Shown here one piece after another: positions 1-23,673 of a stretch of DNA of 39,388 bases. The position numbers were made by a program, and so were the translations under genes. Origin of the DNA: a virus (Duplodnaviria; Caudoviricetes); IMG/VR virus record IMGVR_UViG_3300037657_000017, positions 1 to 39,388 of that record; one strand, 5' to 3'. Every line of letters starts with the position of its first letter. Within the stretch, counting starts at the first letter, position 1. The notes under the pieces were generated by a model that was not told the DNA's origin, did no database searches, and saw only the letters and a program-made list of their open reading frames with translations.

Positions 1-264
1 CATGTTCTCACGGTGTCTCCGGCGGCACACCGTCCGCAAGGATAAAGGACGCCGACAAGCATAGCTGTTTGGCCGCCGCGCCCGTGACACGGCAGAGCGG
101 GACAACCGGACAGCGCGCGGGTAGCTCGGTGTGCGCTACTCGCATCCCTGACCACTATCGCGCCGCGCCGCCGTCAATGACCTCCTCCATGTGACGGTTG
201 ACGCGGCGTTCACTATCCCGGTGTGGGCTGTGTGTCACCAGGTCTTGCCCTCATCTGAATAGCG

Positions 265-1668
265 TCAACACGTGGTGAGATAGTAGCCATCGCGCGTGTC
301 TGCCGGCAGGAGCAGCGCCACATACGGCGCAACGGACGGCTGCGGCTTGACGGCAACGATGGTACGGTCGCGCATGAGGATGTCCGAAAAGAGGGATGTC
401 AGCAAATGGCGGCGCTCAGTCGCGTCGGCGTCTTGCCAGTGTGCGGGCAGGTCGCGCATGAACGCGGCGACAGCGGCCAGGTCAACGGCGGGCGATTGCT
501 CGCGCACCTCCAAGAGAGAGCGCAGGCGGTCGCGCTCGCGCAGGTAGACATCACGCGGCGTATCGCCCAGCACGTAGGTGTCGCGCAGGCGCTCAATCTG
601 GCGCTCAACCGTGGCGACATCGGGGCGCGACCGCTCGCCGGCAGGCCGTCCGGCGATCCGGCGCAGGGCGTCATCGGGAGGTGCGAGGCGCGCCAGAAGC
701 GGCGGTATCTGTGCAATCAGACGCGCCTCACCGACGCCACGCTGCGCACAGGCAGACCCGGCCCAGCGCCCGCCGCACACGTACACGGGGCCGCGCTGCT
801 GTGGCGTCTGTGCGTGGTAATGTTCACCGCAGAGAGCGCAGGTCAAGAGCGCACCGAACAGGTAGGCACGGTAAGTCGGCGGGTGCGAGGCGGTGCGGCG
901 ATTGGACGCAAGTGATTGTTCGGCCAGGGCAAAGATCGTCGGGTCAACGATTGGCTCATGGCTGCCCGCGTACCAGACGCCGTGATGCTGCACCTGGCCG
1001 AGATACAGGCGGTTATGCAGCAGCGGGGAGAAGCCGGACACGTGGCGCAGGTAGCCGGCGGCGGCGCTCTCGTCGCGCAGTTGGCGCAGGGTGCAGCCCT
1101 CTGCGGCCATCGCAAACAGGCGCTTGACGAGGGGCGCAGTGTCGGGATCGGGCACAATCACACCATCAACGCGATGATAGCCCAGGGCGCAGGTGCTTGC
1201 GTTATTCTTGCCTTGCGTGGCGCGCTCGCCCTTGCCTTTGGTGACATGGTGGGCGAGGTTATCCGAGAAGTAGGAGGCAAAGGCGCCGAGGATCACGAGC
1301 TGCAACTTGCCTTCCGGTGTGTCATAGGAGATGGCTTCAGAGAGTGAGACGAAGGCGACGTGGTTATCGGCCAGGATGCGGAAGACGGTCAGTGTCACCA
1401 TGACGTTGCGGCTGAGTCTATCCAGGGAATGCACAAGCAGCACGTCAACCTGACGCGCCTTGACAGCATCCAGCGCAGCGGTCAGGCCGGGGCGCTTCTC
1501 GATGCGCTCCGATCGGGCGCTAATGCCCTCGTCTGTTGTCTCCAGGGCAATGGTGTAGGTGCGGGCGGTGCAGGCGTCGTGGAGGGCGCGCCGTTGCGCG
1601 TCTAACGAATAGCCTTCCCGTTGTTGCTCTGTGGAGACGCGCGAATAGAGAGCGGCGCGAAGGGTCAA
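265..1668 (-). CDS. int: Large serine recombinase (phage integrase)
   Basis: N-terminal resolvase motif YSRVSTEQQ (catalytic Ser) and LDRLSRN; recombinase domain (LHNRLYLG...HEPIV); Zn ribbon CALC...YVC...C; coiled coil; 467 aa. Confidence 0.95.
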   Translation of the reverse strand: MTLRAALYSRVSTEQQREGYSLDAQRRALHDACTARTYTIALETTDEGISARSERIEKRPGLTAALDAVKARQVDVLLVHSLDRLSRNVMVTLTVFRILADNHVAFVSLSEAISYDTPEGKLQLVILGAFASYFSDNLAHHVTKGKGERATQGKNNASTCALGYHRVDGVIVPDPDTAPLVKRLFAMAAEGCTLRQLRDESAAAGYLRHVSGFSPLLHNRLYLGQVQHHGVWYAGSHEPIVDPTIFALAEQSLASNRRTASHPPTYRAYLFGALLTCALCGEHYHAQTPQQRGPVYVCGGRWAGSACAQRGVGEARLIAQIPPLLARLAPPDDALRRIAGRPAGERSRPDVATVERQIERLRDTYVLGDTPRDVYLRERDRLRSLLEVREQSPAVDLAAVAAFMRDLPAHWQDADATERRHLLTSLFSDILMRDRTIVAVKPQPSVAPYVALLLPADTRDGYYLTTC

Positions 1669-2141
1669 AAGCCTGTCACCTCTTTGATCTTGTATGATGT
1701 GGCGCTATCCTCAAGGATGATCGCCTTGAACTTCCACAGACCGCCCGGCTCCAGGCCGTTGACATTGGCCAGCGTGCTGCCCACCAATGCGCCGCTCTTG
1801 TCATACAGGCTGATGCTCACCTGGACATAGCCATGCGTTTTCGTGCTGTTGTTGCGCACCGTGCCGACAACGTAGCGGGCATACTGCTCGGAGAGGATGC
1901 TATGGTCCAAGACCTCCAGGGCCGGCTTCTGTGGCGTGTTCGTGGGCCGGGGCGTGTTCGTCGGTTTCGCAGCCGTGGCGATCGGCGCGCTTGTCGGCTG
2001 TGCTGATTGGCCGGCAACGGTTGCGACGGGCGCGGCTGTCGGCGTGGCGCTCGCGTCTTTCTTGCTGGGGCTGGCGACGGCGACGCACATGCAGATGAGA
2101 ACCAGGGCGACGATACCGATGAGGATGTTGCGCTTTGTCAT
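1665..2141 (-). CDS. Membrane-anchored FxLYD-domain protein, possible superinfection exclusion factor
   Basis: N-terminal hydrophobic anchor, PT-rich linker, then GTVRNNS...VSISLYDKSGALVG...LEPG typical of FxLYD Ig-like domain; sits between repressor and integrase. Confidence 0.8.
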   Translation of the reverse strand: MTKRNILIGIVALVLICMCVAVASPSKKDASATPTAAPVATVAGQSAQPTSAPIATAAKPTNTPRPTNTPQKPALEVLDHSILSEQYARYVVGTVRNNSTKTHGYVQVSISLYDKSGALVGSTLANVNGLEPGGLWKFKAIILEDSATSYKIKEVTGF

Positions 2142-2260
2142 CGTGTCTCCTACTGTCTACTGCGCTCACCGGCGCGGTTATACGTGCAATTGCGTACTTG
2201 ACGGCGTATCCGGCGGGGTGTACTCTACGTCTATCTACGTAGGAAGCGTTTACATTGGTG

Positions 2261-2303
2261 TTGACAAGCACAAAGACTTGTGAGACAATAGAACGGACGT
2301 TCT
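2261..2303 (+). promoter_or_regulatory. Sigma70-type promoter with overlapping LexA (SOS) box
   Basis: TTGACA (2261-2266), 17 bp, GACAAT (2284-2289, preceded by TGn); AGAAC-ggac-GTTCT at 2290-2303 covers the predicted start site. Confidence 0.8.
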
Positions 2304-2362
2304 GATACATACCCCATCGCTGCACCATCACCGCTGCCACTGCTGTTCGACGGAGAAGATTC

Positions 2363-2569
2363 ATGCAAGCGGAAAAGCCCTCGGAACCTACGCTACAGTT
2401 TCAGTACTGTCCCCGCTGTGGAGAGTCACGCGTTTTCCTGAACGGCGTTTGTCTTGCCTGTGCGCCTTCCGATGTTCCTCGTAGAGAAACCGCGCCATTG
2501 TCTCCAGCGTCCGTATTGTCCCGGCGTCCATATCGGGATAGTCGCGCCGCAACACCTCGGCAAGTGTAA
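2363..2569 (+). CDS. Small Zn-finger protein, candidate SOS-induced antirepressor
   Basis: GGAG RBS at 2352-2355; CPRC-x10-CLAC motif; downstream of the LexA-boxed promoter; overlaps the repressor gene antisense. Confidence 0.55.
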   Translation: MQAEKPSEPTLQFQYCPRCGESRVFLNGVCLACAPSDVPRRETAPLSPASVLSRRPYRDSRAATPRQV

Positions 2570-2789
2570 TCTCTTGCAGTGGGACGTCTGGCAAGAACTC
2601 CTGCACCGGGGTCTGTGTGTGGCGCGCAATCGCTTCGAGCGTGTCAAGGGTGATCCCTTTCACGTTGCCATGCTCATACGATGATAGCTGCGATTGGCTA
2701 AACCCCAGCTTCTCAGCAAGCTCGCCCTGGTTCAGGTCAGCCCTCTTGCGCGCCCTCTGTATGCGCTCCCCGATAGCAATATTGTCCAT
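2388..2789 (-). CDS. XRE/Cro-CI family HTH repressor without S24 peptidase domain
   Basis: IGERIQRARKRADLNQGELAEKLGFSQSQLSSYEHG is a classic HTH_3 sequence; divergent from the early operon. Confidence 0.92.
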   Translation of the reverse strand: MDNIAIGERIQRARKRADLNQGELAEKLGFSQSQLSSYEHGNVKGITLDTLEAIARHTQTPVQEFLPDVPLQEITLAEVLRRDYPDMDAGTIRTLETMARFLYEEHRKAHRQDKRRSGKRVTLHSGDSTETVA

Positions 2790-2803
2790 ACCGATATTCT
2801 ACA
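2787..2803 (-). promoter_or_regulatory. -10 element for a probably leaderless repressor transcript
   Basis: Minus strand TAGAAT (2801-2796) lies 6 nt upstream of the ATG; no SD sequence. Confidence 0.55.
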
Positions 2804-2918
2804 CCAGCCCGGCCCCGTTGTGTGCATTTCAGTCTGACCAAAAGAACGCCTCTCAGTAATGAGTTTTATCAGTTTCGCAAATTGGCCCCTAAAAACACGC
2901 CAAACGCTTGACAGTATA

Positions 2919-2927
2919 TGGTATAAT
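2919..2927 (+). promoter_or_regulatory. Early lytic promoter (extended -10)
   Basis: TGGTATAAT (TGn + consensus TATAAT) in the AT-rich divergent intergenic region. Confidence 0.65.
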
Positions 2928-2980
2928 ATTGGTGTAAGAGATAGCAAATAGAAGTACCACAAATAACGAGGAGAACACAA

Positions 2981-3139
2981 ATGGCAGACAACCAGACATA
3001 CAACCCGCTGGCCGTGGACGCAGAACTGATCCGGCTACACGCCGAGATGATGGCAAAGTGCTGGCAGGAGTGGAACACGTTATCCGCAGAACGCCAGGCC
3101 GAAATCCTGCGTGGGATGCAGGAGAACGCCGCACGGTAA
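2981..3139 (+). CDS. Small hypothetical protein (52 aa), first gene of the early operon
   Basis: GAGGAG RBS; MADNQTYNPLAVDAELIRLHAEMMAKCWQEWNTLSAERQAEILRGMQENAAR; below the ORF-track length cutoff. Confidence 0.7.
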   Translation: MADNQTYNPLAVDAELIRLHAEMMAKCWQEWNTLSAERQAEILRGMQENAAR

Positions 3140-3203
3140 CATGCACGAGGTCTGCCGGCCTTATCCGCAAGACCGGCACGGCAACACAGAGGAGGAAAAG
3201 CCC

Positions 3204-3389
3204 ATGAATGAAACAGCAGTTGAGGAGAGGGTCATCGTATCGGCGTGGCTGCCCGAACCGCTAGGCACACGCTTTGAGAACTACCGCTGGCGCAATCGCA
3301 TGACCAAGACTGATGTTGTCACGGATGCGGTGGTGGAATACCTGGAGCGCCATGACACCCAGCCCGCGCAAGAGCAGGCCCAGTCATGA
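3204..3389 (+). CDS. Ribbon-helix-helix (Arc/CopG-like) DNA-binding protein, Cro-position regulator
   Basis: GGAGG RBS; VIVSAWLP strand, helix, then MTKTDVVTDAVVEYL pattern. Confidence 0.7.
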   Translation: MNETAVEERVIVSAWLPEPLGTRFENYRWRNRMTKTDVVTDAVVEYLERHDTQPAQEQAQS

Positions 3390-3619
3390 CGCAAGACCAA
3401 GCGTGGCACGCACTCACGCCGCAGCAGCAGGACGCACTTGTCGCAGTATTAGCGTCCCACGTCGCATTCGTGGCCCGGCACCGGGCAGAATTGAGAGAGG
3501 AGGCAACACATGACATCACTGGACAAGATGTTCAACGCAATCGAAAAGAACCCGCCGTATCACATCGAGCGCACGATCACGCCGGAGCAGACGACATGCT
3601 TCATCATGCACAACGGTAA
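3386..3619 (+). CDS. Hypothetical protein
   Basis: ATGA coupling to previous stop; overlaps next ORF by 110 nt. Confidence 0.45.
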   Translation: MTQDQAWHALTPQQQDALVAVLASHVAFVARHRAELREEATHDITGQDVQRNRKEPAVSHRAHDHAGADDMLHHAQR

Positions 3620-3791
3620 CGTCGTCGCGGCAATGAGCGGGCCAGACTATGACGCCGTGACAGCACGGGCGTCGATCACATGCGGGCGGCTGAACTACCG
3701 GGCAACTGGCGTTGTATGCTCGCCTGTTCTGGAGCCGACGCACACGATCCCGGCGTGGGTGATGGCGGTGCAGGTGGAGGTGACAGCATGA
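3510..3791 (+). CDS. Hypothetical protein
   Basis: GGAGG RBS; coupled to next ORF. Confidence 0.65.
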   Translation: MTSLDKMFNAIEKNPPYHIERTITPEQTTCFIMHNGNVVAAMSGPDYDAVTARASITCGRLNYRATGVVCSPVLEPTHTIPAWVMAVQVEVTA

Positions 3792-3925
3792 TAAACGCAT
3801 TCGCGGCAGGAGCTTGCTTCATGGCAATGCTGTATCATCTTGCGAATAAGTCGTATGGATGGGCGGCGTTGGGGGCTGCATTTGTGATTGTCAACCTATT
3901 ATGGTGTTGGGTGGTGACGGCATGA
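3788..3925 (+). CDS. Small membrane protein (2 TM)
   Basis: GGAGG RBS, ATGA overlap, hydrophobic 45 aa. Confidence 0.6.
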   Translation: MINAFAAGACFMAMLYHLANKSYGWAALGAAFVIVNLLWCWVVTA

Positions 3926-4014
3926 TTGACACTCTCGCGTCTATCGGCGAGTTCATCCTGATCGTGGTCATCTTCCTGGCGCTGGGCTTCGTCTGCCTGA
4001 TGGCATCACTATGA
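3922..4014 (+). CDS. Small single-TM peptide (30 aa)
   Basis: ATGA coupling; MIDTLASIGEFILIVVIFLALGFVCLMASL. Confidence 0.5.
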   Translation: MIDTLASIGEFILIVVIFLALGFVCLMASL

Positions 4015-4104
4015 CGCCAGACAGCCCAGACTTCACCAACGGGCGGCTGCCCCCACCGGAGCCGCCAAAGAAGTAGGACGGCGCACCGGATGCGCAGGTA
4101 GGGG

Positions 4105-4380
4105 ATGGAATGGACAGTCACGGACCTAGTAGGCGTGTACCTTGATGTCGATAGCCTTCTCCAAGAGGGCAAGGTCGAGGCAGCCCGGAAGCGCTTGCAT
4201 CTAGCGATGGCTGATGCAGCGACGGGGAGAATCAGAGAACGGAGTTATGGGGAGCTGCAGCATGATTCGCAACCTGTCGCCATACATCGTGACCGAGCGC
4301 AGCGTACTACAGACACAGACCGACTATCGCACAATGGAGACGGTCATCACAGCAAACGGGCGTCCGATCGTGGCCTGTAG
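4105..4380 (+). CDS. Hypothetical protein
   Basis: Purine-rich RBS; operon position; overlaps next ORF. Confidence 0.45.
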   Translation: MEWTVTDLVGVYLDVDSLLQEGKVEAARKRLHLAMADAATGRIRERSYGELQHDSQPVAIHRDRAQRTTDTDRLSHNGDGHHSKRASDRGL

Positions 4381-4495
4381 CACGAAGCAAGAGGCCCAAG
4401 ACATGCTCACCTATTTGGATGATCGCAAGCCCCGGCGTACGGCAAACACGGCAAACATACCAAGCCCAAGCATTGAAGACATATTCGGAGTGTGA
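4262..4495 (+). CDS. Hypothetical protein
   Basis: GGAG RBS before MIRNLSPY; ends just before bet. Confidence 0.6.
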   Translation: MIRNLSPYIVTERSVLQTQTDYRTMETVITANGRPIVACSTKQEAQDMLTYLDDRKPRRTANTANIPSPSIEDIFGV

Positions 4496-4504
4496 GGAGG
4501 AATC

Positions 4505-5443
4505 ATGGACGCAGCACGGGGGTACGACCAGAGCAAGATCGACCTGCTCAAAGCGACCTACGCGAAGGGCGCAACTGACACAGAGTTACAACTGTTTCTG
4601 ACCGTGGCCCAGCATCGTGGGTTGGACCCATTCAGCGGTCAGATCGTGTTCGTCAAGCGCAAGCAGTTTGTTGACGGCGAGTACAAGGAAGTCGGCACAT
4701 TCCAGGTGACGATTGACGGCTTCCGGGCCATTGCCGATCGCACTGGCCAGTACATGCCGTCGGAGAACCTGCCCGTCTTCACCTACAAGAAAGACGGCAC
4801 ACTGGAATCGGCCATCGTTGAGGCGCTGAAGTGGCACGAGAAATCACAACAGTGGATGCGCGTCAAAGCCGTTGCCCGCTATGACGAGTTTGTGCAGATG
4901 ACGCGTGACGGCAAGCCGAACCATATGTGGGCGAAAATGCCGCACAACCAGCTTGCCAAGTGCGCAGAGGCGCAACTGTTCCGCAAGACCTGGCCGCAGC
5001 AGACGGAAGGGCTGGAAGTCGAGGGTGTCGAGGCGTTGCCGCCGGGCGCAATCGAAGGCCAGTACACAGCGATAACGGAAGGAAAGGCGCCCGCTTCATC
5101 GGCGCTGCCGGCTACAACTCAGCCAACACAACTTGACATTGCCCGCGCTCGCGTCCAGGAAATCGCAACACGGCTGACCGGACAGACACGCGAGGAGGCG
5201 GAGGCGGAACTTGCGGCGCACGAAGCGGAGACCATCCCCGCCGGCCATGACGAGCGCCTGGCCTTCATCGCTGCCCATTGCGCTGACATCAATTGGACGC
5301 CCCGCGACGTGAGCAAGTACGTCAAAGACACCTTCATGCACTCCAATCCCAGCCAATGCACCGATGACGAACTGCTCACCCTGTGCAAGATGGTGACGAC
5401 GAAGCCCGCGACCGACAACGACACGACAGGAGCGGGGAAATGA
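4505..5443 (+). CDS. bet: Bet/RecT-family ssDNA annealing protein
   Basis: ELQLFLTVAQHRGLDPFSGQIVFVKR, IDGFRAIADRTGQY, WAKMPHNQLAKCAEAQLFRKTWP motifs. Confidence 0.92.
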   Translation: MDAARGYDQSKIDLLKATYAKGATDTELQLFLTVAQHRGLDPFSGQIVFVKRKQFVDGEYKEVGTFQVTIDGFRAIADRTGQYMPSENLPVFTYKKDGTLESAIVEALKWHEKSQQWMRVKAVARYDEFVQMTRDGKPNHMWAKMPHNQLAKCAEAQLFRKTWPQQTEGLEVEGVEALPPGAIEGQYTAITEGKAPASSALPATTQPTQLDIARARVQEIATRLTGQTREEAEAELAAHEAETIPAGHDERLAFIAAHCADINWTPRDVSKYVKDTFMHSNPSQCTDDELLTLCKMVTTKPATDNDTTGAGK

Positions 5444-5877
5444 GCGAGACACTCAACGACCTGGCACGCACGGTAGCACTCGCACGGCAAGAGGAAGACC
5501 ATCTCAAGGCGCTGGTCAAGGAATCAGACGAAGCGTACGCGCTACAGACCGCCTACATGCGTGAGCAACTGAAAAAGGCCAGCGACGCAGCCCGCCAAGC
5601 GGAGTTTGAGCTACGCATCGCATCGCTCAAGGCGTGGGAAACAGACGGCAACAAGCACCAGCCCGGCGCAACCATCCGCATGATGAAGCGGGTGCTGTAC
5701 GAGGCGAAAGACGCGATGGCCTGGGCGATGGAGCACAAGATGTTTCTCAAGCTCGACGATAAAGGCTTTGAGCGGTACGCCAAAGAGACGCCGCCGGACT
5801 TCGTGCTAGTGCAGGATGAAGCGACAGCGGCCATTGACAGCGACCTGAGTGCGTTCCTGAAGGATGGTGCGGAATGA
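5440..5877 (+). CDS. Gam/siphovirus gp157-like coiled-coil protein
   Basis: N-terminal coiled coil, short beta-rich C-terminal part, adjacent to bet. Confidence 0.55.
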   Translation: MSETLNDLARTVALARQEEDHLKALVKESDEAYALQTAYMREQLKKASDAARQAEFELRIASLKAWETDGNKHQPGATIRMMKRVLYEAKDAMAWAMEHKMFLKLDDKGFERYAKETPPDFVLVQDEATAAIDSDLSAFLKDGAE

Positions 5878-6086
5878 GCGAGGCGCCGAAGGTTTGCCCG
5901 CTGTTTATGATGGCGAAGGTCGCGGGAATGGAGAACGCCGGTAACCGCGCCGAGGAATGTATCGAGGAGCAGTGCGCATTCTGGGTTCACGAGGTGCAGG
6001 ATTTCAGCGCTACCAAGAGCACCGACTACTCCGAGTGCAGCATCCCGTACATGACAAAGGCCGTCGAGCGGTTGTCTCTGAAGTAG
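5874..6086 (+). CDS. Small Cys-rich protein
   Basis: CPL...CIEEQCAFW...C motif common in phage small proteins; ATGA coupling. Confidence 0.65.
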   Translation: MSEAPKVCPLFMMAKVAGMENAGNRAEECIEEQCAFWVHEVQDFSATKSTDYSECSIPYMTKAVERLSLK

Positions 6087-6550
6087 CACTCCCAGCGGCC
6101 ACTCGCTTACGCACGACCGCCGGTCAGTGAGCGACCGAGCCTGCACACCCGTTTGACGGGCAAAGGAGGTCGCCTCCTCAATCGCTCATGGTACGGCAGT
6201 CCGGCGCAAGACGGGCTGCAAACAACTGAATGGGGCGCTCCATACGCGCTCCGATACCAGCCAGCCGGGGATAGTATAGGGTATCGTGATTCTATCCCCG
6301 GCAACGACACAGAACACGCTCACCCATGCGCCCGCCGGACACGCCTCACGCCGAATAGTCTGAACGGCGACCAATGAGGCTCGGCAGATGACAACCCGAC
6401 TGTGACGGGGACGCGGAGTACCGCTGAAACGTTGTGAGGTGAGCAACCCAGACGCTAGGGATATAGCGCCAGACGCACCACAGGACGCCCCATGCCGCTC
6501 GACGTGTAGGCTCCAGGCCTATGCGGGGCGGGGTCGAAGTCGGCGGCAAA
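6087..6550 (+). ncRNA. Candidate large structured non-coding RNA, family unassigned
   Basis: 480-bp gap in an otherwise tightly coupled operon containing more than 12 mutually compatible helices, long-range pairings and a pseudoknot; G-U pairs favour the + strand. Confidence 0.65.
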
Positions 6551-6567
6551 GATAAAAGGAGGGGGAG

Positions 6568-7248
6568 ATGTTCAAAGTAGGGGATGAGGTGTTGGTCAAG
6601 GCGAAGGTTGTCAAGGTCAACAGCAACAACAGCAGTAATTATCCATACAAGGTTGACTTCGGTGACGATTTTTCGTGGCGTTCTGCCGCCGACATCCTGC
6701 CCGTCCCTACTGCGCCGACGTTCCGCGTGGGGGATAAGGTGAAACCGACCATTGGCGTAAGATCGCGCACGGTCGAGGTTGTTGTAGGGCAGCAGCCGTG
6801 CTACAAGATAAACGGTAGCCTTTACATGTACGCCGAGGCCGATCTTACGCTTGTCGAGAAAGCAGCGCCCGCCAAGCCCGCCACGTCCTACTCGCTCTTC
6901 GTCGATGACACCAACGACATCGACTGGCGGCGCATCTGTGAGGAAGCAGATGCGGGGACGGATGTCATCAAGGTGACAGCGCCAGGTGTATCTACTGTTC
7001 TCCTGTTGCGCGAGTCGTGGCTACGCAGGGCTAATCCCGATTGGACTTTGGGTGACGGTAGCGTGCAGGCAACGCTTGACGGCTACCGTACAGCAATCAA
7101 TGTTGTTGCTCCTGACGGCTGGCGTGTTCGTGTGCCTGGTGAAAGGTGGGAGAGCAGAATGCTTACCCATATCGCCGCCATTCGCGCCGCCATCGCCGCC
7201 AAAGAAGCCGCCGCGAAGAAGATCGAGGTGAAGGTCGAGGTGGTGTAG
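6568..7248 (+). CDS. Protein with two tandem KOW/SH3-like repeats
   Basis: FKVGDEVLV and FRVGDKVKP repeats; strong AGGAGG RBS. Confidence 0.75.
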   Translation: MFKVGDEVLVKAKVVKVNSNNSSNYPYKVDFGDDFSWRSAADILPVPTAPTFRVGDKVKPTIGVRSRTVEVVVGQQPCYKINGSLYMYAEADLTLVEKAAPAKPATSYSLFVDDTNDIDWRRICEEADAGTDVIKVTAPGVSTVLLLRESWLRRANPDWTLGDGSVQATLDGYRTAINVVAPDGWRVRVPGERWESRMLTHIAAIRAAIAAKEAAAKKIEVKVEVV

Positions 7249-7271
7249 GGCGGAAACACAGGAGGCACAGC

Positions 7272-7652
7272 ATGATCGCTCTTTCCGGTCGTTGCCCTGG
7301 TAGAGGGGAATCAGAACGCCGTCAATGCGTCTGCGGTGTGATCGTCTACAGCTACATGGGCCATGAAACCACGGCGCAGCGGCGCATCTACGAGGATAAG
7401 ACCGGGCTTATTCACGATTGCCCGGCGGTGCGACTGACAGACATCATTGAGTGTCATTGCGGCGACATGGTGCAGCGCTATGACGACGGCCATAAGATGA
7501 ACATGGACAACACGCCGCACACCTGCGCCAAGCCGGTCACGGTCACGATTGCGCCGCCGGCCACGCCAGCGCCCAAGCAGGCGCCAAAGCCCGTCAACCC
7601 GTCCGGCCATTGGAAGGGCGTCGTCTCAACAGAGATTCATCGGGGAGTGTAG
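7272..7652 (+). CDS. Protein with two CxC...HxC metal-binding repeats
   Basis: GGAGG RBS; CVC...HDC and CHC...HTC. Confidence 0.65.
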   Translation: MIALSGRCPGRGESERRQCVCGVIVYSYMGHETTAQRRIYEDKTGLIHDCPAVRLTDIIECHCGDMVQRYDDGHKMNMDNTPHTCAKPVTVTIAPPATPAPKQAPKPVNPSGHWKGVVSTEIHRGV

Positions 7653-7655
7653 GGT

Positions 7656-8957
7656 ATGCCAGCATCTGACGCGCAGGTCTATGACACACCGGGCGGGTAT
7701 CGCTTCTATTGGCCAACTGAGCACTTACAGATCGCCGTCAAGCGGCTATCGGATAACCGGCGCGACCAGTCCACGAGCGCCGAGATCCGCGTCGAGTCGC
7801 TTGACCCGGTTGCGCCCGGCCATATCCACCAGGCACGCGTCAATCTGACATCGACCCAGGCAAAGAACAGCCTCATCAAGCAGCTCAAGGAAGCAAACGA
7901 GGTCTTTGATTGGCCGGGCATCGTGGAGACGCTGTGCTTCCAGACGCTCGAGCTGCACCGTCAAGGTGAGCCGCTACAGATGATTGGCGATCGGCCACTA
8001 TCCGGCGGCACAAAGTATCGCTTGCGCCCATTGGTGCCGGAAGGAATGCCGGCTATTATCTTTGGTGAAGGGGGAACAGGCAAGAGCTTTATTGCACTTC
8101 TGGCGGCGATCCTGGTGCAGACGGGGCAGACCGCTATGGGCTTGCGACCCACGCAAGGCAATGTGCTGTACCTGGACTATGAGACATCGGCAGAGACACA
8201 GAATGAACGGGTGAGGGCGATTTGCGCGGGCATGAACACGCCGTCAACACAAATCGCTTACAGGTATTGCTATCACCCGCTGGCAGAGGACATCGAGACG
8301 ATTCAGGACATGGTGGCGGACAAGGCTATCTCCTTCCTGATTGTTGACAGTCTGGGGCCAGCCTGCGGCGGCGATCCGAACGAAGCGGAACTCGCCATCC
8401 GTATGTTCAATGCACTCCGGCAGTTGCGCGTTTCCTCGCTGTTGATCGACCACGTAGCAAAGAACTTGCAGGACGGGCAGAAAGCGTCACCATATGGCAG
8501 CGTCTACAAGACGAATCTGGCTCGGTCTGTCTGGCAGATCAAACCAGCCGCAGGCACAGAGGGCTTTCATACTCGCGTTGGTCTTTACCATCGCAAGGTG
8601 AACTTTGGACCTCTTATGACGGATGGCCTGGGCTTTGGCATGACCTACCAGAACGACCAAAATGAGCAACTTACCAGCGTGCAGATTGAGAGCATCGGCG
8701 TGAAAGATGACGTTGACCTCTCCAAGAATCTGAGCTTGCGTAAGCAGATTGAGAACTGCCTTTCCGGGCGGCGTATGACCATTGACGACCTGGCTATCGA
8801 GTTGGGGATGTTAGACGACAAGCAAGAGATCGACCGGAACAAACGAGAGGTGCTGCGCGTCACACTGGCAAAGGGCAAGGGGCATAGCTTCCAAAAGTGG
8901 GGGGATAATTGGGGTTTACTCGCGATTGACCAGGCTCCGTATGAGGATGAAAGTTGA
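7656..8957 (+). CDS. Replication protein, RecA/DnaB-like AAA (RepA/AAA_25-type) helicase
   Basis: Walker A GEGGTGKS, VLYLDYE, Walker B LIVDS, IDHVAK, PYGS; HTH-like C-terminus. Confidence 0.88.
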   Translation: MPASDAQVYDTPGGYRFYWPTEHLQIAVKRLSDNRRDQSTSAEIRVESLDPVAPGHIHQARVNLTSTQAKNSLIKQLKEANEVFDWPGIVETLCFQTLELHRQGEPLQMIGDRPLSGGTKYRLRPLVPEGMPAIIFGEGGTGKSFIALLAAILVQTGQTAMGLRPTQGNVLYLDYETSAETQNERVRAICAGMNTPSTQIAYRYCYHPLAEDIETIQDMVADKAISFLIVDSLGPACGGDPNEAELAIRMFNALRQLRVSSLLIDHVAKNLQDGQKASPYGSVYKTNLARSVWQIKPAAGTEGFHTRVGLYHRKVNFGPLMTDGLGFGMTYQNDQNEQLTSVQIESIGVKDDVDLSKNLSLRKQIENCLSGRRMTIDDLAIELGMLDDKQEIDRNKREVLRVTLAKGKGHSFQKWGDNWGLLAIDQAPYEDES

Positions 8958-8960
8958 CAA

Positions 8961-9052
8961 TCCGTAACGCGTTACGTAGCGTTACGCGGAAGTTACGCGT
9001 AATTCCGTAACGTAATTACCGGGGATATGTAATATCCCCGGATTACATTACG
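8961..9052. repeat. Putative replication origin with GTTACG/CGTAAC iteron-like repeats and a hairpin
   Basis: Palindrome CGTAACGCGTTACG (8963-8976); GTTACG at 8981 and 8992; CGTAAC at 9006; perfect IR CCGGGGATAT-gta-ATATCCCCGG (9019-9041); directly after the helicase stop. Confidence 0.7.
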
Positions 9053-9135
9053 GCGCAATTAGAGAAGATAGCATCATAATCCCGCAGGCTGCGGATCAAT
9101 CGCTGCACAACATCGTCGCCCAATGGTGGGAGGCT

Positions 9136-9735
9136 ATGATGAACGGGTGTCCGAGAGGATGGCAGTTACCATACGGCGTGTCATGTAGTGAGATTCAATC
9201 CGACATTCTGTGCGAAGCGTGTCAGACCGGCGGCCTGGGCTATCGGATGCAACGAGCCATGCGCCTGGCGCGCATCCTCGCACCGTTGCTGGCGGCGCTG
9301 ATTGCCGTCATGCTCACCACTGCGCCGGCGAGCGCAGCACACAACCCGGAGCATTGCAACGCTGCGCTCGAGGCGGCGGTTATCTCAGGGCAGGCGCTCG
9401 TCAAGGGCGGCTACATGCAGGAAGGCCGGGCGGTCGCAAACGTCATCTGGAATGGCTATACCTACGTGTGTGTGCTGGGAGTGCGAGACGCTGTTGCCGT
9501 GGCCTGCACGATCTTCCCTTGTCGCGATGTTCTGGGCTACATCGAGAGAGACGCATGGAATCATGGCACAACACTGAGCAAGACCTTGAATGCAAAGGCA
9601 ATCTCTGATTGGGCGAAGGGAGTTGGCAGCCGTGTTGTCCTCGTCGTTACCGTCAATCCGTCTCTCATCGACCCGTCGTGCTATGTCGTCCACCAGGGCC
9701 GCAGAGTCAACGTCTGCCGCCCAGTGGCGCAATAG
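9136..9735 (+). CDS. Membrane-anchored or exported Cys-rich protein
   Basis: GGGAGG RBS; Cys-rich N-terminus, hydrophobic signal-like stretch ending in ASA, Cys-containing C-terminal domain. Confidence 0.7.
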   Translation: MMNGCPRGWQLPYGVSCSEIQSDILCEACQTGGLGYRMQRAMRLARILAPLLAALIAVMLTTAPASAAHNPEHCNAALEAAVISGQALVKGGYMQEGRAVANVIWNGYTYVCVLGVRDAVAVACTIFPCRDVLGYIERDAWNHGTTLSKTLNAKAISDWAKGVGSRVVLVVTVNPSLIDPSCYVVHQGRRVNVCRPVAQ

Positions 9736-9745
9736 GGAGGGCGAC

Positions 9746-9862
9746 ATGCTTCTCGTGCTAGGCGTCATCGCGTTCCTCGTCATCGCCGCTGTGGTGTTCT
9801 GCGTCTGGGCGGCGGACGCGATCAGCGACTATACCGAGGAAAGTACGCATGGGGGAGGGTGA
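9746..9862 (+). CDS. Small single-TM protein
   Basis: GGAGG RBS; MLLVLGVIAFLVIAAVVFCVWAA. Confidence 0.6.
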   Translation: MLLVLGVIAFLVIAAVVFCVWAADAISDYTEESTHGGG

Positions 9863-9866
9863 GGGG

Positions 9867-10088
9867 ATGAAAATACAAGAGTTGCAACTAGTCACGAAGA
9901 CGACATACGAATGGCGTACCGTCATCGAGGCGAAGGATCGCATGATTCGTGTACTAATGGATGATGGCGCAGACTTGAAGGTGAGCGATCAGGAAGGGCT
10001 ATGCATCAGCGCAAGCAATGGCCGATTATTTGTTCTTCCTGTTGCGGCCAATGCTGTCAAGATTGAAACAGAACAGGAGGGGGCATAG
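9867..10088 (+). CDS. Hypothetical protein
   Basis: GAGG RBS before MKIQELQ. Confidence 0.6.
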   Translation: MKIQELQLVTKTTYEWRTVIEAKDRMIRVLMDDGADLKVSDQEGLCISASNGRLFVLPVAANAVKIETEQEGA

Positions 10089-10107
10089 TCTTGACAGTGG
10101 TGACGCC

Positions 10108-10179
10108 ATGAGCGACACGGCGTGGATTGTCTTGCTGTTTATCCTGCTGTTCGGCGTCAGGGTACGCATGACGTGGTAG
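10108..10179 (+). CDS. Possible single-TM micropeptide (23 aa)
   Basis: MSDTAWIVLLFILLFGVRVRMTW fills the intergenic gap; weak RBS. Confidence 0.35.
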   Translation: MSDTAWIVLLFILLFGVRVRMTW

Positions 10180-10191
10180 TAGGGAGGGGGG

Positions 10192-10539
10192 ATGGCTGAG
10201 TTGACACCTGGCCGCGAGATGGATGCGGCGGTTGCGAGGGAGATAGGGTGGAAGTTGGAAACGGGCTATTCCAAGTATCCGCAATGGGAACACGCCCACG
10301 GTCTGCGCCCTGCTGCAAATTGGATGCCGTCAACCCGTAACGAGGATGCGCTCATCGCTGCCAACGAACTATTAGCGCAGAAGCGTATCGGGGCGTATGC
10401 CGTCATCGTGCTACCAGACCACGCCGAGGCAAAGTTGTACAACGACGCACATGACCCGATAGCAGGCGAGGACGGCAAGACACTGGCCGAAGCCATCTGT
10501 GCGGCCATCCTCGCATTGGAGGCACATGATGGACGCTGA
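10192..10539 (+). CDS. Phage ABA-sandwich (BC1872-like) domain protein
   Basis: GREMDAAVAREIGW...PSTRNEDA...TLAEAICAAIL pattern. Confidence 0.75.
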   Translation: MAELTPGREMDAAVAREIGWKLETGYSKYPQWEHAHGLRPAANWMPSTRNEDALIAANELLAQKRIGAYAVIVLPDHAEAKLYNDAHDPIAGEDGKTLAEAICAAILALEAHDGR

Positions 10540-11083
10540 GCGCGTCGAGAAGCTGATCGGGCTGCACGCGGACTTGGAGCAGGCGGTACGCGAGATACCA
10601 CTCACGTTTGGACAGATTGCTCTCATTGACGCCGAGGACTATGAATCAGTATCAGCATATCCGTGGCGCGCTATGCGAGACGAAACAACGGGCGGGTGGC
10701 GCGCCCATACGACTGTTTATGATGGCAATGGGAAGCGGCACGATATTCAGATGTCCCACCTTGTTATGCGTGCCGAACCAGGCGATCAAGTTGACCATCG
10801 TTTCCACAACACACTTGATAATAGGAAGGCCAACTTGCGCAAGTGTACGCAGGCGCAAAATAACTTCAACCAACGGCCTCGCAAGGGAACGTCAGAATAC
10901 AAGGGCGTGTCATGGGAAAAGCGTCGCTGCAAGTGGCGAGCGCAAATCGTGTACAACTATAAGAACAAGTTTATCGGCTGCTTTTCCAGTGAGGTGGACG
11001 CTGCACGCGCTTACGATAAGGTAGCCCACATTTTGTTTGGTGAGTTTGCTTTCCTCAACTTTCCAGCGGAGGTGATGGCGTGA
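10526..11083 (+). CDS. HNH homing endonuclease with C-terminal AP2 domain
   Basis: VDHRFHNTLDNRKANLR HNH core; YKGVSW...WRAQI...IGCF...AARAYD AP2 domain; lower GC than neighbours. Confidence 0.93.
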   Translation: MMDAERVEKLIGLHADLEQAVREIPLTFGQIALIDAEDYESVSAYPWRAMRDETTGGWRAHTTVYDGNGKRHDIQMSHLVMRAEPGDQVDHRFHNTLDNRKANLRKCTQAQNNFNQRPRKGTSEYKGVSWEKRRCKWRAQIVYNYKNKFIGCFSSEVDAARAYDKVAHILFGEFAFLNFPAEVMA

Positions 11084-11409
11084 ATACTGGTGACGCACGG
11101 GCCACGCTTACAACGGTGATACTTGGTGTGCTGACCGAGCGCCTGGATGTGGTTATGGCGCTTGACGCTCTCGGTAGTGACACGGTTGAGTGCCTGACAA
11201 GGGCGCTTGTTACTGGCGTGATAACATCATCGGTATGTGCTGCGTGCGAGGAACACCCGTCCGTGGCGCGGGTGTGCGCGACGTGTAATGCGGGGTGTGT
11301 GGCAGGGACAACGTTGCATAACGAGGCACTATTCGCCTGTCTTGCGGGGACAGTAGACGGTATTATCCACATGCCGTTCGGCTGCACAGAGTGGCGGGCA
11401 AAGCCATGA
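11080..11409 (+). CDS. Hypothetical Cys-rich protein
   Basis: GTGA coupling; CAAC, CATC, FGCTEW motifs. Confidence 0.6.
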   Translation: MNTGDARATLTTVILGVLTERLDVVMALDALGSDTVECLTRALVTGVITSSVCAACEEHPSVARVCATCNAGCVAGTTLHNEALFACLAGTVDGIIHMPFGCTEWRAKP

Positions 11410-11672
11410 CCGAGCCCTCCCTGTTCGTCTTGCTCGACTTCGCGTCGTCGCCGGAGATTCGCACGGCCAAAGCCAGGGCCAATCGCCTCTTGACAGCGTG
11501 CGACAAGTACATGCAGCTGCACGGCGACCAGCATCTGACCGTGTTTGTCTCGAAGGCGCTGGCAGAGGCGGGCAAGGCACTGGCAGAGATGACGGATCCC
11601 AAGAATATCATGGTGATCGAGCACGCCCGTTTCCGGGGATTGCAGTGTGGCGTGCAGGGGGAGGGGGGATGA
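11406..11672 (+). CDS. Hypothetical protein
   Basis: ATGA coupling at both ends. Confidence 0.6.
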   Translation: MTEPSLFVLLDFASSPEIRTAKARANRLLTACDKYMQLHGDQHLTVFVSKALAEAGKALAEMTDPKNIMVIEHARFRGLQCGVQGEGG

Positions 11673-11911
11673 CCACACAGCAAGCCGAGCCACAGATGAC
11701 GCTTGACGAGATACGCGAGAAGTTCTGCCTGCCGCCGATAGCTGGCGAATCGCACGCCAAACGTCGCGAGCGCCTGGACAAAGCGCAAAGCCTGGGCCTC
11801 ATCACGCCGGTGGACCGGGCGCGCCTGGACTTTCAAGACGAGGTTGCAGCATTCAAGGCAGGGATGCGCGCCGCATGGCAAGCCGTCAAGGACGCATGGA
11901 GGGAGAGATGA
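11669..11911 (+). CDS. Hypothetical protein
   Basis: GGAGG RBS, ATGA coupling. Confidence 0.6.
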   Translation: MTTQQAEPQMTLDEIREKFCLPPIAGESHAKRRERLDKAQSLGLITPVDRARLDFQDEVAAFKAGMRAAWQAVKDAWRER

Positions 11912-11997
11912 CCGCAGAATCAGCCGTCATCGCCCTAGCGCTCGTTTGGCTGGTTGGGCTGGCAATCATACTCTGGCCGTTGGGGAGAAAGCGATGA
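11908..11997 (+). CDS. Single-TM micropeptide (29 aa)
   Basis: MTAESAVIALALVWLVGLAIILWPLGRKR; GGAGG RBS; ATGA coupling at both ends. Confidence 0.55.
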   Translation: MTAESAVIALALVWLVGLAIILWPLGRKR

Positions 11998-12125
11998 CCC
12001 GCCTACGTGACTGTATCCCCGTCCGGCTGCTTGCATTCTTTGTGGCGCTATGCAGGGCATGGCGCGATGTGCGCGAGGAGCACGAGGTTGCGGCCAGGCT
12101 TGACGCCGCATGGAGGGAACGATGA
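11994..12125 (+). CDS. Small hypothetical protein
   Basis: ATGA coupling; GGAG RBS. Confidence 0.5.
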   Translation: MTRLRDCIPVRLLAFFVALCRAWRDVREEHEVAARLDAAWRER

Positions 12126-12313
12126 TCGACCCGCCGCAATCTGAGATACTGAAGGCCTATCGCAAGCTCTACCGGGAACGCGTGCACCTGGACGGCACCG
12201 ACACACGCGACATCGACCACCGGTTGAGCGTGCTGAGAGAGTGGATGGATGCGCCAACGCGACACCAGGCGGCGCTTTATGAACGCAACTACAGGAAGAC
12301 GCATGGAGGGTAG
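12122..12313 (+). CDS. Hypothetical protein
   Basis: GGAGG RBS; ATGA coupling. Confidence 0.6.
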   Translation: MIDPPQSEILKAYRKLYRERVHLDGTDTRDIDHRLSVLREWMDAPTRHQAALYERNYRKTHGG

Positions 12314-12314
12314 A

Positions 12315-12482
12315 ATGACCAATGAAACTTTCATTATGATCGTGGCGTATCTCAACGGCATATTCGGCCTTGCATGTATCCTGTCGAATAGGCAGGAAAC
12401 ACAGTTGCGCGGCATCGGCTCGCTATTGTTTGCGATCATGCTCCTGTTGGGGCAGATTGTGGGAGGCCCCCATGCACAGTGA
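12315..12482 (+). CDS. Small membrane protein (2 TM)
   Basis: GGAGG RBS; two hydrophobic segments. Confidence 0.6.
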   Translation: MTNETFIMIVAYLNGIFGLACILSNRQETQLRGIGSLLFAIMLLLGQIVGGPHAQ

Positions 12483-12804
12483 CCCCTACGCCAGTCCCAT
12501 CATCTGCGCCGGGCGCGGCATTGACCGTGGCTACCTGGAGAAGTGGCGCACGCGTGAGCAGTACGGCGCAGCCGATCGCGACACGTTCATCGCCTTCGAC
12601 TACCTGCTGCCGGCAGAGCCGCCGACGCCGCGCAAGATGCGCACATGCCGCACCTGTGGCTGCCAGTTCCCTCAGCTTGACGGCGGCGGCAACCAGCCCA
12701 ATTGTGTGGCCTGTCGCGACAAGGCGGCGGATGAGGCAGACGCACGGCGACGGGCGGCGCGGGCTGAGAAGATGCGCCAGAAGCGCGAAACATCAAGCAA
12801 ATAG
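12472..12804 (+). CDS. Zn-finger protein with basic C-terminal helix
   Basis: CRTC...CVAC followed by Arg/Lys-rich helix; last early gene. Confidence 0.65.
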   Translation: MHSDPYASPIICAGRGIDRGYLEKWRTREQYGAADRDTFIAFDYLLPAEPPTPRKMRTCRTCGCQFPQLDGGGNQPNCVACRDKAADEADARRRAARAEKMRQKRETSSK

Positions 12805-12816
12805 CCGTTTGTGACC

Positions 12817-12845
12817 TTGACACTTCGGGCGTCGTGTGTGAAAAT
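12817..12845 (+). promoter_or_regulatory. Putative late promoter
   Basis: TTGACA (12817-12822), 17 bp, GAAAAT (12840-12845) preceded by TGn. Confidence 0.5.
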
Positions 12846-12865
12846 ATGAGCGTTGGAGGGGCTAC

Positions 12866-13060
12866 GTGCCCCCAACACCGCAGCAAATAACTGAAGAGCA
12901 ATTCTGGGCGTGGCTGGCTACAATTCCGCTTGACCCACACTTCTACGGCCAAATCACTCTAACCGTGCGGGCGGGCGTTGTCGCCGAGGTCGAGCAGCGG
13001 CAGACCTTCAGAAAGCCACCACGTCAACAAGGCGGCCTTACCAGGCAGCCCGAGGAATGA
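12866..13060 (+). CDS. DUF2292/YezD-like small protein
   Basis: FYGQITLTVRAGVVAEVEQRQTFR resembles the DUF2292 [FY]G-x-[IV]...G-x-V...E core; GGAGG RBS with GTG start. Confidence 0.6.
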   Translation: MPPTPQQITEEQFWAWLATIPLDPHFYGQITLTVRAGVVAEVEQRQTFRKPPRQQGGLTRQPEE

Positions 13061-13074
13061 TCGGCACAATACCG

Positions 13075-13124
13075 ACGCCTCATCTATGCGAGTCATCGCA
13101 TGGGTGAGGCGTTTCGTCGTTTCT
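13075..13124 (+). terminator. Intrinsic terminator ahead of the packaging genes
   Basis: 17-bp stem (13075-13091/13096-13112, two G-U pairs), GTCA loop, U-rich tail TTCGTCGTTTCT. Confidence 0.7.
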
Positions 13125-13206
13125 ACGGCATATCGTTGTGGACGCGCCGGGCGGCTCTGCCGCTTACGATTGCGGGAAAACTGACGCATGGTGGGGGCGT
13201 CACTCT

Positions 13207-13425
13207 ATGAGCGTGACGTTTCTAGCGACTATCTCGATGTTGCAATCCGCTATCCAGATTGCAGGCGACGGCGGGGCACGCATCAAACTGGACATCGACG
13301 ACACCGGCATGGACGCGGTCATGGCTCTATCAGGGATGCGCGGCGAGTTGCTGCGGGTGACAGTGGAACTAGCAGACGCACCACAAGACGCAAAAAAACG
13401 GAAGGAAAAGCGTGACAGGACGTGA
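13207..13425 (+). CDS. Small hypothetical protein upstream of terminase
   Basis: MSVTFLATIS...GGARIKLDI...LRVTVE; overlaps terS start. Confidence 0.65.
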   Translation: MSVTFLATISMLQSAIQIAGDGGARIKLDIDDTGMDAVMALSGMRGELLRVTVELADAPQDAKKRKEKRDRT

Positions 13426-13747
13426 CGAGCGCGGACGGTTCCTGAAGGGCGGTGACGGCGGGCCTGGGCGTAAGCCCCTTGAGGTCAAGGCCGATATTGT
13501 CCGCGCGCTCAACAGTGAGATAACAGAGACGGATGCTGTCAAGCTGCTTGCCGCGTGCGTGAAACGCAAGGAAGGATGGGCGCTCAAGTTGTGGTTTGCC
13601 TATCTGTGGGGTGAGCCAATACAGCGCGTCGAGGCGAGTGGGCCAGATGGCGAAAGACTCACGTTTGGCATCCAGCCAATCGACTACCGCACCGGTTTGG
13701 ACGCGATTGCGCCCAGACCAGTATCAGATAGCGACACATCCGGCTAA
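13412..13747 (+). CDS. terS: Terminase small subunit (DUF5681-like)
   Basis: GRFLKGGDGGPGRKP N-terminus; directly before terL. Confidence 0.75.
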   Translation: MTGRDERGRFLKGGDGGPGRKPLEVKADIVRALNSEITETDAVKLLAACVKRKEGWALKLWFAYLWGEPIQRVEASGPDGERLTFGIQPIDYRTGLDAIAPRPVSDSDTSG

Positions 13748-14930
13748 GACAAAGGTTCTGGCAGCAGGCCGTCGCTTCGGAAAGACGGTATTGGGCGGTG
13801 GCTGCGTGATGAACTGTGCGGGGCGCGGTGGTCGCGTGGCCTGGATTGTCCCAGAGTATCGCAACGGGCGTCCGTTGTGGCGCATGGCTGAGGCGTCTGT
13901 CGCACGTCTGCTCAAAGCGAAGCTGGTCAGTGTCAACGAATCGGAGCGCCTGATCACGTTTCGCAATGGTGGTAGCCTGGGCATCTACACGGCAGACAAC
14001 CCGTCAAGCATCCTGGGCGAGGCGTTCAACCTGATCGTTGTCGACGAGGCTGCTCGCGTCAAAGAAGACGTGTGGTATGAGACGATACAGCCCACCCTGG
14101 CCGATGTCAACGGCGACGCGATCCTGATCAGTACACCGAAGGGGCGTAACTGGTTCTGGCGTGAGTGGGTGCGCGGGCAGACAGATAACGGCGACATCAA
14201 ATCATGGCAATGCCCGACGACAGCAAACCCCAACCCCAACATACAGCGGGCGGCGCTCATGGCAGCGGAGCGCATCCCGGAACGCATTTATCAGCAGGAA
14301 TGGCTAGCACAGTTTATTGAGTCAGGCGGCGGCGTCTTCCGCCGCATCACAGAGGCGGCCAAAGCCCTGCGCCAAGACAAGGCCATCACCGATCACCGCT
14401 ATGCGTTCGGGGTGGACTGGGGCAAGAGCAACGACTTTACCGTGATCGCTGTCTGGGATTTGACGCTCAAAGCGCTCTGTGCGCTCGACCGATTCAATCA
14501 GATCGACTACGCCGTGCAGTTGGGGCGCTTGCAGGCGCTCTATGAGCGATTCACATGGACAAGCGACGATGGCCAGGGCGGGGTCATCCTACACCCACCC
14601 ATCACGATCATTGCAGAGTCAAACAGCATGGGGCAGCCGCTTGTCGAAGCATTACAGCGCATGAATCTGCCTGTGCAGCCGTTCACGACCAGCAACGCAA
14701 CCAAGACAGCGGCGATTGACGCGCTGGCCCTGGCCTTCGAGCGGGGCGACGCGACGATCATTGACGACAAGACGCTCATTGCTGAATTGCAATCCTATGA
14801 GATGGAACGCCTGCCCAGCGGCCTGTTGCGCTACTCAGCGCCGGAAGGCATGCACGATGATACGGTCATGGCGGCGGCAATGGGCTGGCAGGCAGCGTGC
14901 AACACACTCGATGGGCCTCTTATGTACTAA
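13647..14930 (+). CDS. terL: Terminase large subunit
   Basis: AGRRFGKT Walker A, VVDEAA Walker B, ISTPKGRNW, GVDWG nuclease motif, HDDTVMA; start codon uncertain. Confidence 0.95.
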   Translation: MAKDSRLASSQSTTAPVWTRLRPDQYQIATHPAKTKVLAAGRRFGKTVLGGGCVMNCAGRGGRVAWIVPEYRNGRPLWRMAEASVARLLKAKLVSVNESERLITFRNGGSLGIYTADNPSSILGEAFNLIVVDEAARVKEDVWYETIQPTLADVNGDAILISTPKGRNWFWREWVRGQTDNGDIKSWQCPTTANPNPNIQRAALMAAERIPERIYQQEWLAQFIESGGGVFRRITEAAKALRQDKAITDHRYAFGVDWGKSNDFTVIAVWDLTLKALCALDRFNQIDYAVQLGRLQALYERFTWTSDDGQGGVILHPPITIIAESNSMGQPLVEALQRMNLPVQPFTTSNATKTAAIDALALAFERGDATIIDDKTLIAELQSYEMERLPSGLLRYSAPEGMHDDTVMAAAMGWQAACNTLDGPLMY

Positions 14931-14943
14931 GGCGGTATAGCCT

Positions 14944-17061: not shown

Positions 17062-17071
17062 GGGGTACACC

Positions 17072-17836: not shown

Positions 17837-17837
17837 C

Positions 17838-19286: not shown

Positions 19287-19297
19287 CGCAATCTGAT

Positions 19298-19328
19298 GGC
19301 GGGGAGCTAACCCCTCCCCGCCTATCTT
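19298..19328 (+). terminator. Hairpin or weak terminator after the capsid gene
   Basis: GGCGGGGAG/CTCCCCGCC 9-bp stem followed by TATCTT. Confidence 0.55.
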
Positions 19329-19340
19329 GGAGGCAACACA

Positions 19341-19766: not shown

Positions 19767-19829
19767 GCAACACAGATAGATGCACCAACTCACGGCCCGA
19801 AGCCGTGTAGACACATTTGGAGGACGACA

Positions 19830-23643: not shown

Positions 23644-23644
23644 A

Positions 23645-23673
23645 AGTATAGCGTTTCTTGACACAATAGTCAA
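23645..23673 (-). promoter_or_regulatory. Sigma70 promoter of the HNH cassette
   Basis: Minus strand TTGACT, 17 bp, TATACT. Confidence 0.8.

Follow-up and report, generated by a model that had tools for sequence, protein, structure and literature searches.

In phage P4, the origin of replication comprises ori together with a second site, crr. Excerpts of PMC9942202 only mention crr; those of PMC4234260 describe pRN1, whose replication gene is followed by a stem-loop origin, and the stem-loop priming sites of RSF1010, which are used with a RepA helicase. According to excerpts of the respective papers, the early message of phage T7 carries five RNase III signals (PMC3867540), the c4 RNA represses a co-transcribed operon (PMC8198154), and the large RNAs GOLLD and ROOL often adjoin tRNA genes (PMC12286853).

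The locus considered here, a gap at positions 6087-6567 of a phage genome, resembles each of these systems in part. As with the RNase III stems of T7, a long imperfect intergenic stem is predicted straight after a stop codon in a polycistronic early message; unlike them, it measures ~125 nt, ends in a three-way junction, has an alternative fold, and represents one site rather than five. Like pRN1, RSF1010 (ssiA/ssiB), and P4, the phage has a helicase gene followed immediately by a stem-loop gap, part of whose sequence recurs at a second site, but here only a 9-bp arm is common, the spacer is different, and the second site has no recognised iterons and lies in a probably transcribed leader. In common with P1 c4 and P4 CI, the early transcript of this temperate phage would contain a short segment that could pair with complementary stretches on either side of it; unlike them, the gap shows no family match, and no anti-repressor or terminator was found beside it. 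Similar to GOLLD and ROOL, the gap is phage-borne, non-coding, several hundred nucleotides long, and predicted to form multibranch folds; it differs in being shorter than ROOL env-120 (659 nt) and GOLLD (often >800 nt) and in having no Rfam match, no tRNA neighbour, and no pseudoknot beyond one candidate. We tentatively read the gap as a set of separate cis-acting control modules, lying between the genes for recombination and those for replication, rather than as one large RNA, an interpretation to which we assign somewhat less than an even chance.

The phage and the setting of the gap

The window, that is, the whole stretch of DNA analysed, is a complete virus record of 39,388 nt from a temperate, long-tailed, uncultured phage. 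It encodes a serine integrase (265-1668, minus strand), a repressor (inside 2142-2980), a Bet/RecT protein (4505-5443), and terminase, portal, capsid, and tail proteins, and its only tRNA gene, tRNA-Trp(CCA) at 36531-36604, is located among the late genes (ARAGORN). Since the named relatives of the integrase are mostly from Chloroflexota, the host likely belongs to this group. Two sequencing runs that contain most of the window are of groundwater DNA.

The 481 nt of the gap separate the stop codon of a 70-aa gene (6086) from the next gene, which encodes 226 aa and starts at 6568. A sequence-only reading had singled it out as the largest intergenic gap of the genome, which held once three larger apparent gaps proved to be filled: 2142-2980 by the repressor gene, 22973-23784 by an antisense HNH gene, and 35904-36635 by an ORF and the tRNA-Trp gene. 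The HNH endonuclease gene (22926-23540, minus strand; PF01844) runs antisense to the tail operon, and a second gene of this kind, HNH-AP2, is found at 10526-11083.

The upstream gene (5874-6086, plus strand; codon score +19 bits) encodes a small cysteine-rich protein of 70 aa, and its TAG forms the 5′ border of the gap. This stop looks real because the closest clusters in the ESM Atlas consist of viral proteins about as long (52-79 aa). Downstream, a Shine-Dalgarno (SD) sequence at 6557-6562 precedes the gene of a 226-aa protein (plus strand, ending at 7248) with two predicted SH3-like barrels of the KOW/Tudor type, the fold matches being weak (best E 2e-3). Its C-terminal domain is common to a few unnamed proteins and bears no family name. 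A role as an RNA-binding antiterminator was considered and set aside, as the matches are at fold level only (E 2e-3 or weaker). Further downstream, a 126-aa cysteine-motif protein (7272-7652) stops at a TAG, and the gene of a RepA-like (AAA_25) helicase (7656-8957, plus strand; PF13481, E 2e-23; PHROG helicase, E 2e-10) begins in-frame one codon on; readthrough at the 7652 junction would yield a fused replication protein consisting of the cysteine-motif protein and the helicase.

Coding status and transcription

The gap does not code for protein. Of the 17 ORFs of at least 10 codons that touch it, none scores above 0 when codon usage is modelled on this phage, in agreement with the earlier remark that no convincing ORF was present; the genes on either side each reach about +20 bits on this model, which is not sharp, since some real genes of the phage reach only +4. 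The frame following the upstream TAG is open for 96 codons; its score is lower than that of any of the 93 true-frame segments, and it is devoid of the GC3 bias of the phage genes and has no family or phage protein match. Readthrough or recoding of this TAG was rejected in view of the codon scores and the similar-length viral relatives of the upstream protein. Furthermore, the changes seen in two related contigs (X3 and X4, described below) are, by eye, spread evenly over codon positions. A consensus scan called no sigma-70 promoter or intrinsic terminator on either strand of 6087-6567, so the early message likely runs through the gap. Its G+C content is 63%, with no A+T-rich tract.

Known RNA classes and homologues

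An Rfam search, proposed in the sequence-only reading, gave no match to the gap at the gathering score, and the three matches up to E 10 were all far below their cut-offs, with the miRNA and thermoregulator hits due to chance. Within the gap, Rfam matched no RNase P RNA, group I or II intron, small ribozyme, or riboswitch, and no 6S, SRP, Y RNA, or CRISPR repeat; neither ARAGORN nor Rfam found a tmRNA in the window. The claim that the region cannot be assigned to tmRNA, RNase P, group I/II introns, or known ribozymes is thus borne out. The GOLLD, ROOL, and OLE covariance models also left the gap unmatched, as did the c4 models (up to E 10); c4 and Chloroflexi-1 are both Rfam families according to an excerpt of PMC2864571, and the gap matches neither. 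Short motif likenesses to known RNA classes, picked by eye, were rejected, the motifs being out of order. The element is uncatalogued, and no description of it was found in the literature; four of its 10-nt motifs are absent from the three supplements searched, of six, in the catalogue of viral RNA candidates PMC10690425, whose alignments may cover the 5′ module.

No homologue of the full gap was found in any data searched, and none of its central or 3′ domains in any search made. BLAST of the gap against phages and plasmids was negative. DNA patterns of the gap returned 0, 7, 8, 23, and 6 stretches from viral contigs, and a metagenome pattern search returned 6, all of them chance on inspection; a genome pattern search and a Bet alignment gave 0 matches, and a Bet search in viral contigs gave 0 and then 1 distant locus. 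The capsid alignment set comprised 80 of 135 loci, and all 80 were searched by BLAST and nhmmer. In addition, 49 capsid-related records and the Bet record were searched whole (with DNA and two single-sequence covariance models), and 40 stretches of 23 records were searched again, with no homologue in either case. The best covariance-model hit among these relatives was discarded because it sits within an FtsK-like gene. This blank among the capsid relatives says little, as they have almost no early genes in common with the window. Elsewhere in the window, two 19-nt matches to the gap (13373, 33071) and one 12-nt complement (13097) do not exceed chance, such hits occurring in 19 of 81 tiles.

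Three capsid-related phages contain strongly folded gaps rich in repeats or palindromes (L162, 13268-13727, minus strand; L159, 8184-8565; L172, 15583-16195, minus strand). These are unrelated in sequence to the gap at 6087-6567, those of L162 and L159 look origin-like, and the z values computed for relatives' gaps (8 shuffles) are too noisy for use. The viral contigs L028, L032, L034, L037, and L042 have a hairpin-containing sequence in common around the site that the pattern search hit, likewise unrelated to the gap element.

Folding strength of the gap

Every helix and hairpin named in the sequence-only reading was recovered in place or within 1-2 bases; the hairpin at 6196-6219 is present in the sequence but lies outside the preferred fold, its bases joining a longer rod instead. 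The folding z-score, for which a value near zero was named there as a refutation, is -2.79 on the plus strand and -2.69 on the minus strand, and the advantage over shuffles is about equal on both strands. There are nine Watson-Crick helices of at least 7 bp in the gap (shuffle mean 5.9; 5 of 60 shuffles reach nine) and 30 of at least 6 bp (shuffle mean 26.3). Among the 481-nt tiles of the genome, the gap ranks 24th of 81 in GC-corrected energy, 6th of 81 in ensemble diversity, 26th of 81 in confident pairs, and 4th of 41 in z (14 shuffles each), and an unbiased local scan places its best structure 18th of 158 non-overlapping hits on the plus strand and 8th of 144 on the minus strand. The stability of the whole region is unexceptional for its own genome.

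The 5′ part (6087-6263) has a z of -3.28, with 0 of 150 shuffles as good. The 3′ 265 nt (6303-6567), which hold most of the nested helices named earlier, have a z of -0.31, with 39 of 100 shuffles as good, this cut at the palindrome ignoring the predicted domains and removing one strand of a closing helix. By predicted domain, the z values on the plus and minus strands are -3.1/-3.9 (domain I, the rod), -3.0/-2.6 (domain II), -2.3/-0.5 (core, 6310-6450), and -2.8/-1.1 (domain III); they favour the plus strand for the 3′ half, yet all are inflated because the borders were taken from the predicted fold. Domain II is predicted to be a closed multibranch domain (6230-6493, plus strand), composed of a closing helix (6230-6241/6483-6493), a four-way element (6318-6444), and a hairpin (6453-6468). 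Over 6229-6494, ensemble diversity is lower than in all 60 shuffles, and the unpaired linkers are A-rich (0.44). Domain III is a hairpin with G-U pairs just 5′ of the ribosome-binding site of the next gene (6494-6547, plus strand; second estimate of z -3.2).

These observations bear on the possibility that the gap yields one large structured RNA of ~265-460 nt, belonging to an undescribed class, cut from the early transcript, and acting in trans like GOLLD and ROOL. Such an RNA would fit the biggest gap of a packed genome, the three tidy predicted domains, the low diversity, plus-strand preference, and A-rich linkers of domain 6229-6494, and the lack of an Rfam match. We nevertheless regard it as unlikely, in view of the ordinary stability of the whole region, the z of the 3′ 265 nt, the domain borders chosen after folding, the sole pseudoknot candidate (6252-6258/6280-6286) being reached by 259 of 5000 shuffles (chance ~0.05), the blank among 50 capsid- or Bet-related records, and a distance of ~30 kb to the window's only tRNA gene (36531).

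The 5′ module and its two relatives

The comparative data consist of two short contigs, one of run X3 and one of X4, from a single wastewater study, and the letters compared extend 30 beyond each end of the conserved block. This block, the core of module 1, spans 60 nt (6093-6152, plus strand), of which 59 are identical in X3, and it is the sole piece of at least 40 nt among seven records of that run compared with window positions 1-20,000. Upstream of it, X3 carries a different gene end, also with a TAG 6 nt before the block; identity to the window starts 6 nt past this TAG and falls after 6152. X4 matches 6011-6143 with five differences, three of which lie in the 6-nt spacer between TAG and block and show the same letters as X3. 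It is equally close to the window over the upstream gene and over the block, and capsid pieces at 85-90% are among the eight pieces listed for X4.

In simulated folding of the growing transcript to 6190, a hairpin forms first (6095-6144, plus strand; 6103-6110/6127-6134, cap 6115-6125), and the block alone also folds as this hairpin (z -1.5). Because the block coincides with this self-contained, first-folding hairpin, the conserved unit appears to be a short module that follows the stop codon. A stabler alternative is predicted to be an imperfect rod of ~125 nt (6095-6219, plus strand) that ends in a three-way junction and contains 43 pairs, its main helices having pair probabilities of 0.9-1.0; in the predicted switch, 6127-6134 leaves 6103-6110 to pair with 6182-6189. 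The rod has 21 of 29 in-register Watson-Crick pairs, a value reached by 1 of 200 shuffles and by no other of the 81 tiles, with the window length picked after the rod was seen. Two small hairpins are also predicted at 6148-6178 (plus strand); in the second, an SD-like AGGAGG (6164-6169) is base-paired to the complementary 6173-6178.

Beyond the block, X3 aligns without gaps over 6153-6182 (22 of 30 identical), and its eight changes (by eye) fall in loops in five cases and break pairs in three, so that all three paired-site changes are disruptive; no compensatory change was seen in the gap in the X3 and X4 letters. X3 keeps the SD-like word AAAGGAGG at 6162-6169 and loses its pairing complement, and no second X3 piece was reported over the 3′ arm of the rod (6177-6209), though the contig extends 57 nt further.

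Recent recombination alone could yield a 60-nt identity, and phage Rad52-like recombinases use short homologies, as an excerpt of PMC3945230 states. Most of the gap might be a decayed gene or unselected DNA, with only the 5′ block kept as a hairpin and ribosome-site cassette at a recombination boundary. The SD-like word that has lost its partner in X3, as if a gene began soon after, the missing second X3 piece, and the 96-codon open frame would all agree with decay, and gaps of at least 300 nt are common among the relatives (68 in 773 kb, by a crude gene caller). We judge this rather improbable, as the frame scores below every true-frame segment, lacks GC3 bias, and matches no family, the origin-matched palindrome (see below) and the in-register rod would be left unexplained, and the reading rests on X3 letters up to 6182.

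It is less probable still, and in our view quite doubtful, that the 5′ module works as an antisense switch resembling P1 c4 and P4 CI, in which a small RNA from 6127-6146 would pair with targets both up- and downstream and gate the replication genes. This segment has five potential partners of 7-10 bp (at 6103, 6182, 6317, 6377, and 6504; a raw count), a folding switch is predicted during transcription, 6173-6178 can pair with the SD of gene 6568, and repression of a co-transcribed operon is what c4 itself brings about; however, no c4 model of Rfam matches, no anti-repressor was found adjacent, there is no terminator to gate, and the SD complement is lost in X3.

A palindrome shared with an origin-like gap

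The strongest helix of the gap is a perfect 11-bp palindrome with a 17-nt spacer (6264-6302; module 2). Its 9-bp arm occurs exactly four times in the 39 kb, making up this palindrome and another at 9019-9041, and this is the only arm pair sharing at least seven bases among the 13 perfect inverted repeats of the genome. The simulated chance of shared arms is 0.0057 for any pair and 0.0024 for this arm, the match having been noticed post hoc and shared-arm pairs being present in 3 of 23 related records, both of which count against a modular reading. The spacers between the 9-bp arms differ (19 nt at 6264-6302 versus 5 nt at 9019-9041), which makes a single dimeric protein at both palindromes awkward.

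The second palindrome lies in a 181-nt gap (8958-9138) that contains short palindromic repeats and a long stem-loop. On both strands, no other stretch of the genome folds as strongly in the local scan (z about -6.7); the A+T fraction of this gap is 0.54-0.63, and one hexamer has all three of its genome copies in it. The comparison with pRN1 and RSF1010 suggests that it is probably the replication origin. None of its short repeats occurs in 6087-6567.

The shared arm, a RepA-type helicase encoded 1.1 kb downstream, and a rod and palindrome that fold equally well or better on the minus strand would also suit a structure acting as DNA, with single-strand hairpins serving as an auxiliary origin or priming site, but this is improbable given the missing origin-type repeats, the 63% G+C without an A+T-rich tract, and a central core and 3′ hairpin that prefer the plus strand and use G-U pairs. 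A new class of phage RNA of 265-460 nt that carries a copy of the origin hairpin and binds or titrates the replication helicase is a similarly slim prospect; if true, phages that likely infect Chloroflexota would use it to coordinate early transcription with the onset of DNA replication.

A proposed modular control region

The interpretation of the gap as a modular cis-acting region, which we hold provisionally, is based on the lack of any promoter- or terminator-like site in a consensus scan, the occurrence of the block behind different upstream genes, and palindrome arms that recur only in 8958-9138. The concentration of folding in 6087-6263, the coincidence of the block with the first-folding hairpin, and the precedents of T7, pRN1, and RSF1010 also speak for it. 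Taken together, the X3/X4 comparison and the shared palindrome suggest parts with separate histories. Counting against it, the comparison is confined to two short contigs whose identity recombination could explain, the paired-site changes in X3 are all disruptive, the longest unbroken helix of the rod is 8 bp and the minus strand folds slightly better, and the central domain is well defined on the plus strand only and would be unneeded by a mere leader. The sequence-only reading had offered two options, a novel structured non-coding RNA and a complex cis-regulator. As to the first, the region is indeed non-coding, uncatalogued, and partly folded, but a single ornate GOLLD- or ROOL-like RNA of ~460 nt lacks support, considering the near-zero z of the 3′ 265 nt, the absence of central or 3′ homologues in the searches, the lack of compensatory changes in X3 and X4, and parts that seem separately derived; the second is compatible with the data and is now the favoured form.

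In a modular region of this kind, the gap would be transcribed within the early message from a promoter near 2920. The 5′ module, right after the stop codon, would fold first into the hairpin and then into the long imperfect rod, which may act as an RNase III-type processing or stability signal that parts the upstream message from the replication-gene message. By prediction, the rod is long, mostly double-stranded, and intergenic in a message, as RNase III stems are. The palindrome at 6264-6302 may be a second site for a factor that recognises the origin-like hairpin, possibly the helicase or its zinc-finger neighbour (7272), and binding there could feed back on the replication genes or offer an additional point for loading; like crr/ssi-type accessory sites, it shares sequence (the 9-bp arms with 9019-9041) with a putative origin. 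The 3′ hairpins would then form the leader structure of gene 6568. The block may additionally be a crossover point for module swapping, as it is the most conserved short stretch and lies beside the Bet/RecT gene. If the modular reading holds, the gap is a modest and so far uncatalogued regulatory element of phages whose hosts have received little study, and it warns that tidy folds are weak evidence in DNA of 63% G+C. Should the origin hairpin that it shares work in RNA, early gene expression would be tied to replication through RNA in an unusual way.

Other structured sites in the genome

The second-largest gap of the genome (12805-13206) is located upstream of the terminase genes. It contains a promoter-like site at ~12818-12846 (by eye) and, at 13074-13113, an 18-pair hairpin (z -7.0) with a weak U tract, an arrangement resembling a late promoter, leader, and terminator. 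In the portal gene, a 9-nt unit is present in three direct copies at 16205-16243, with its complement coming next, and a strongly folded pair of hairpins is found near the right end of the window (38891-38965).
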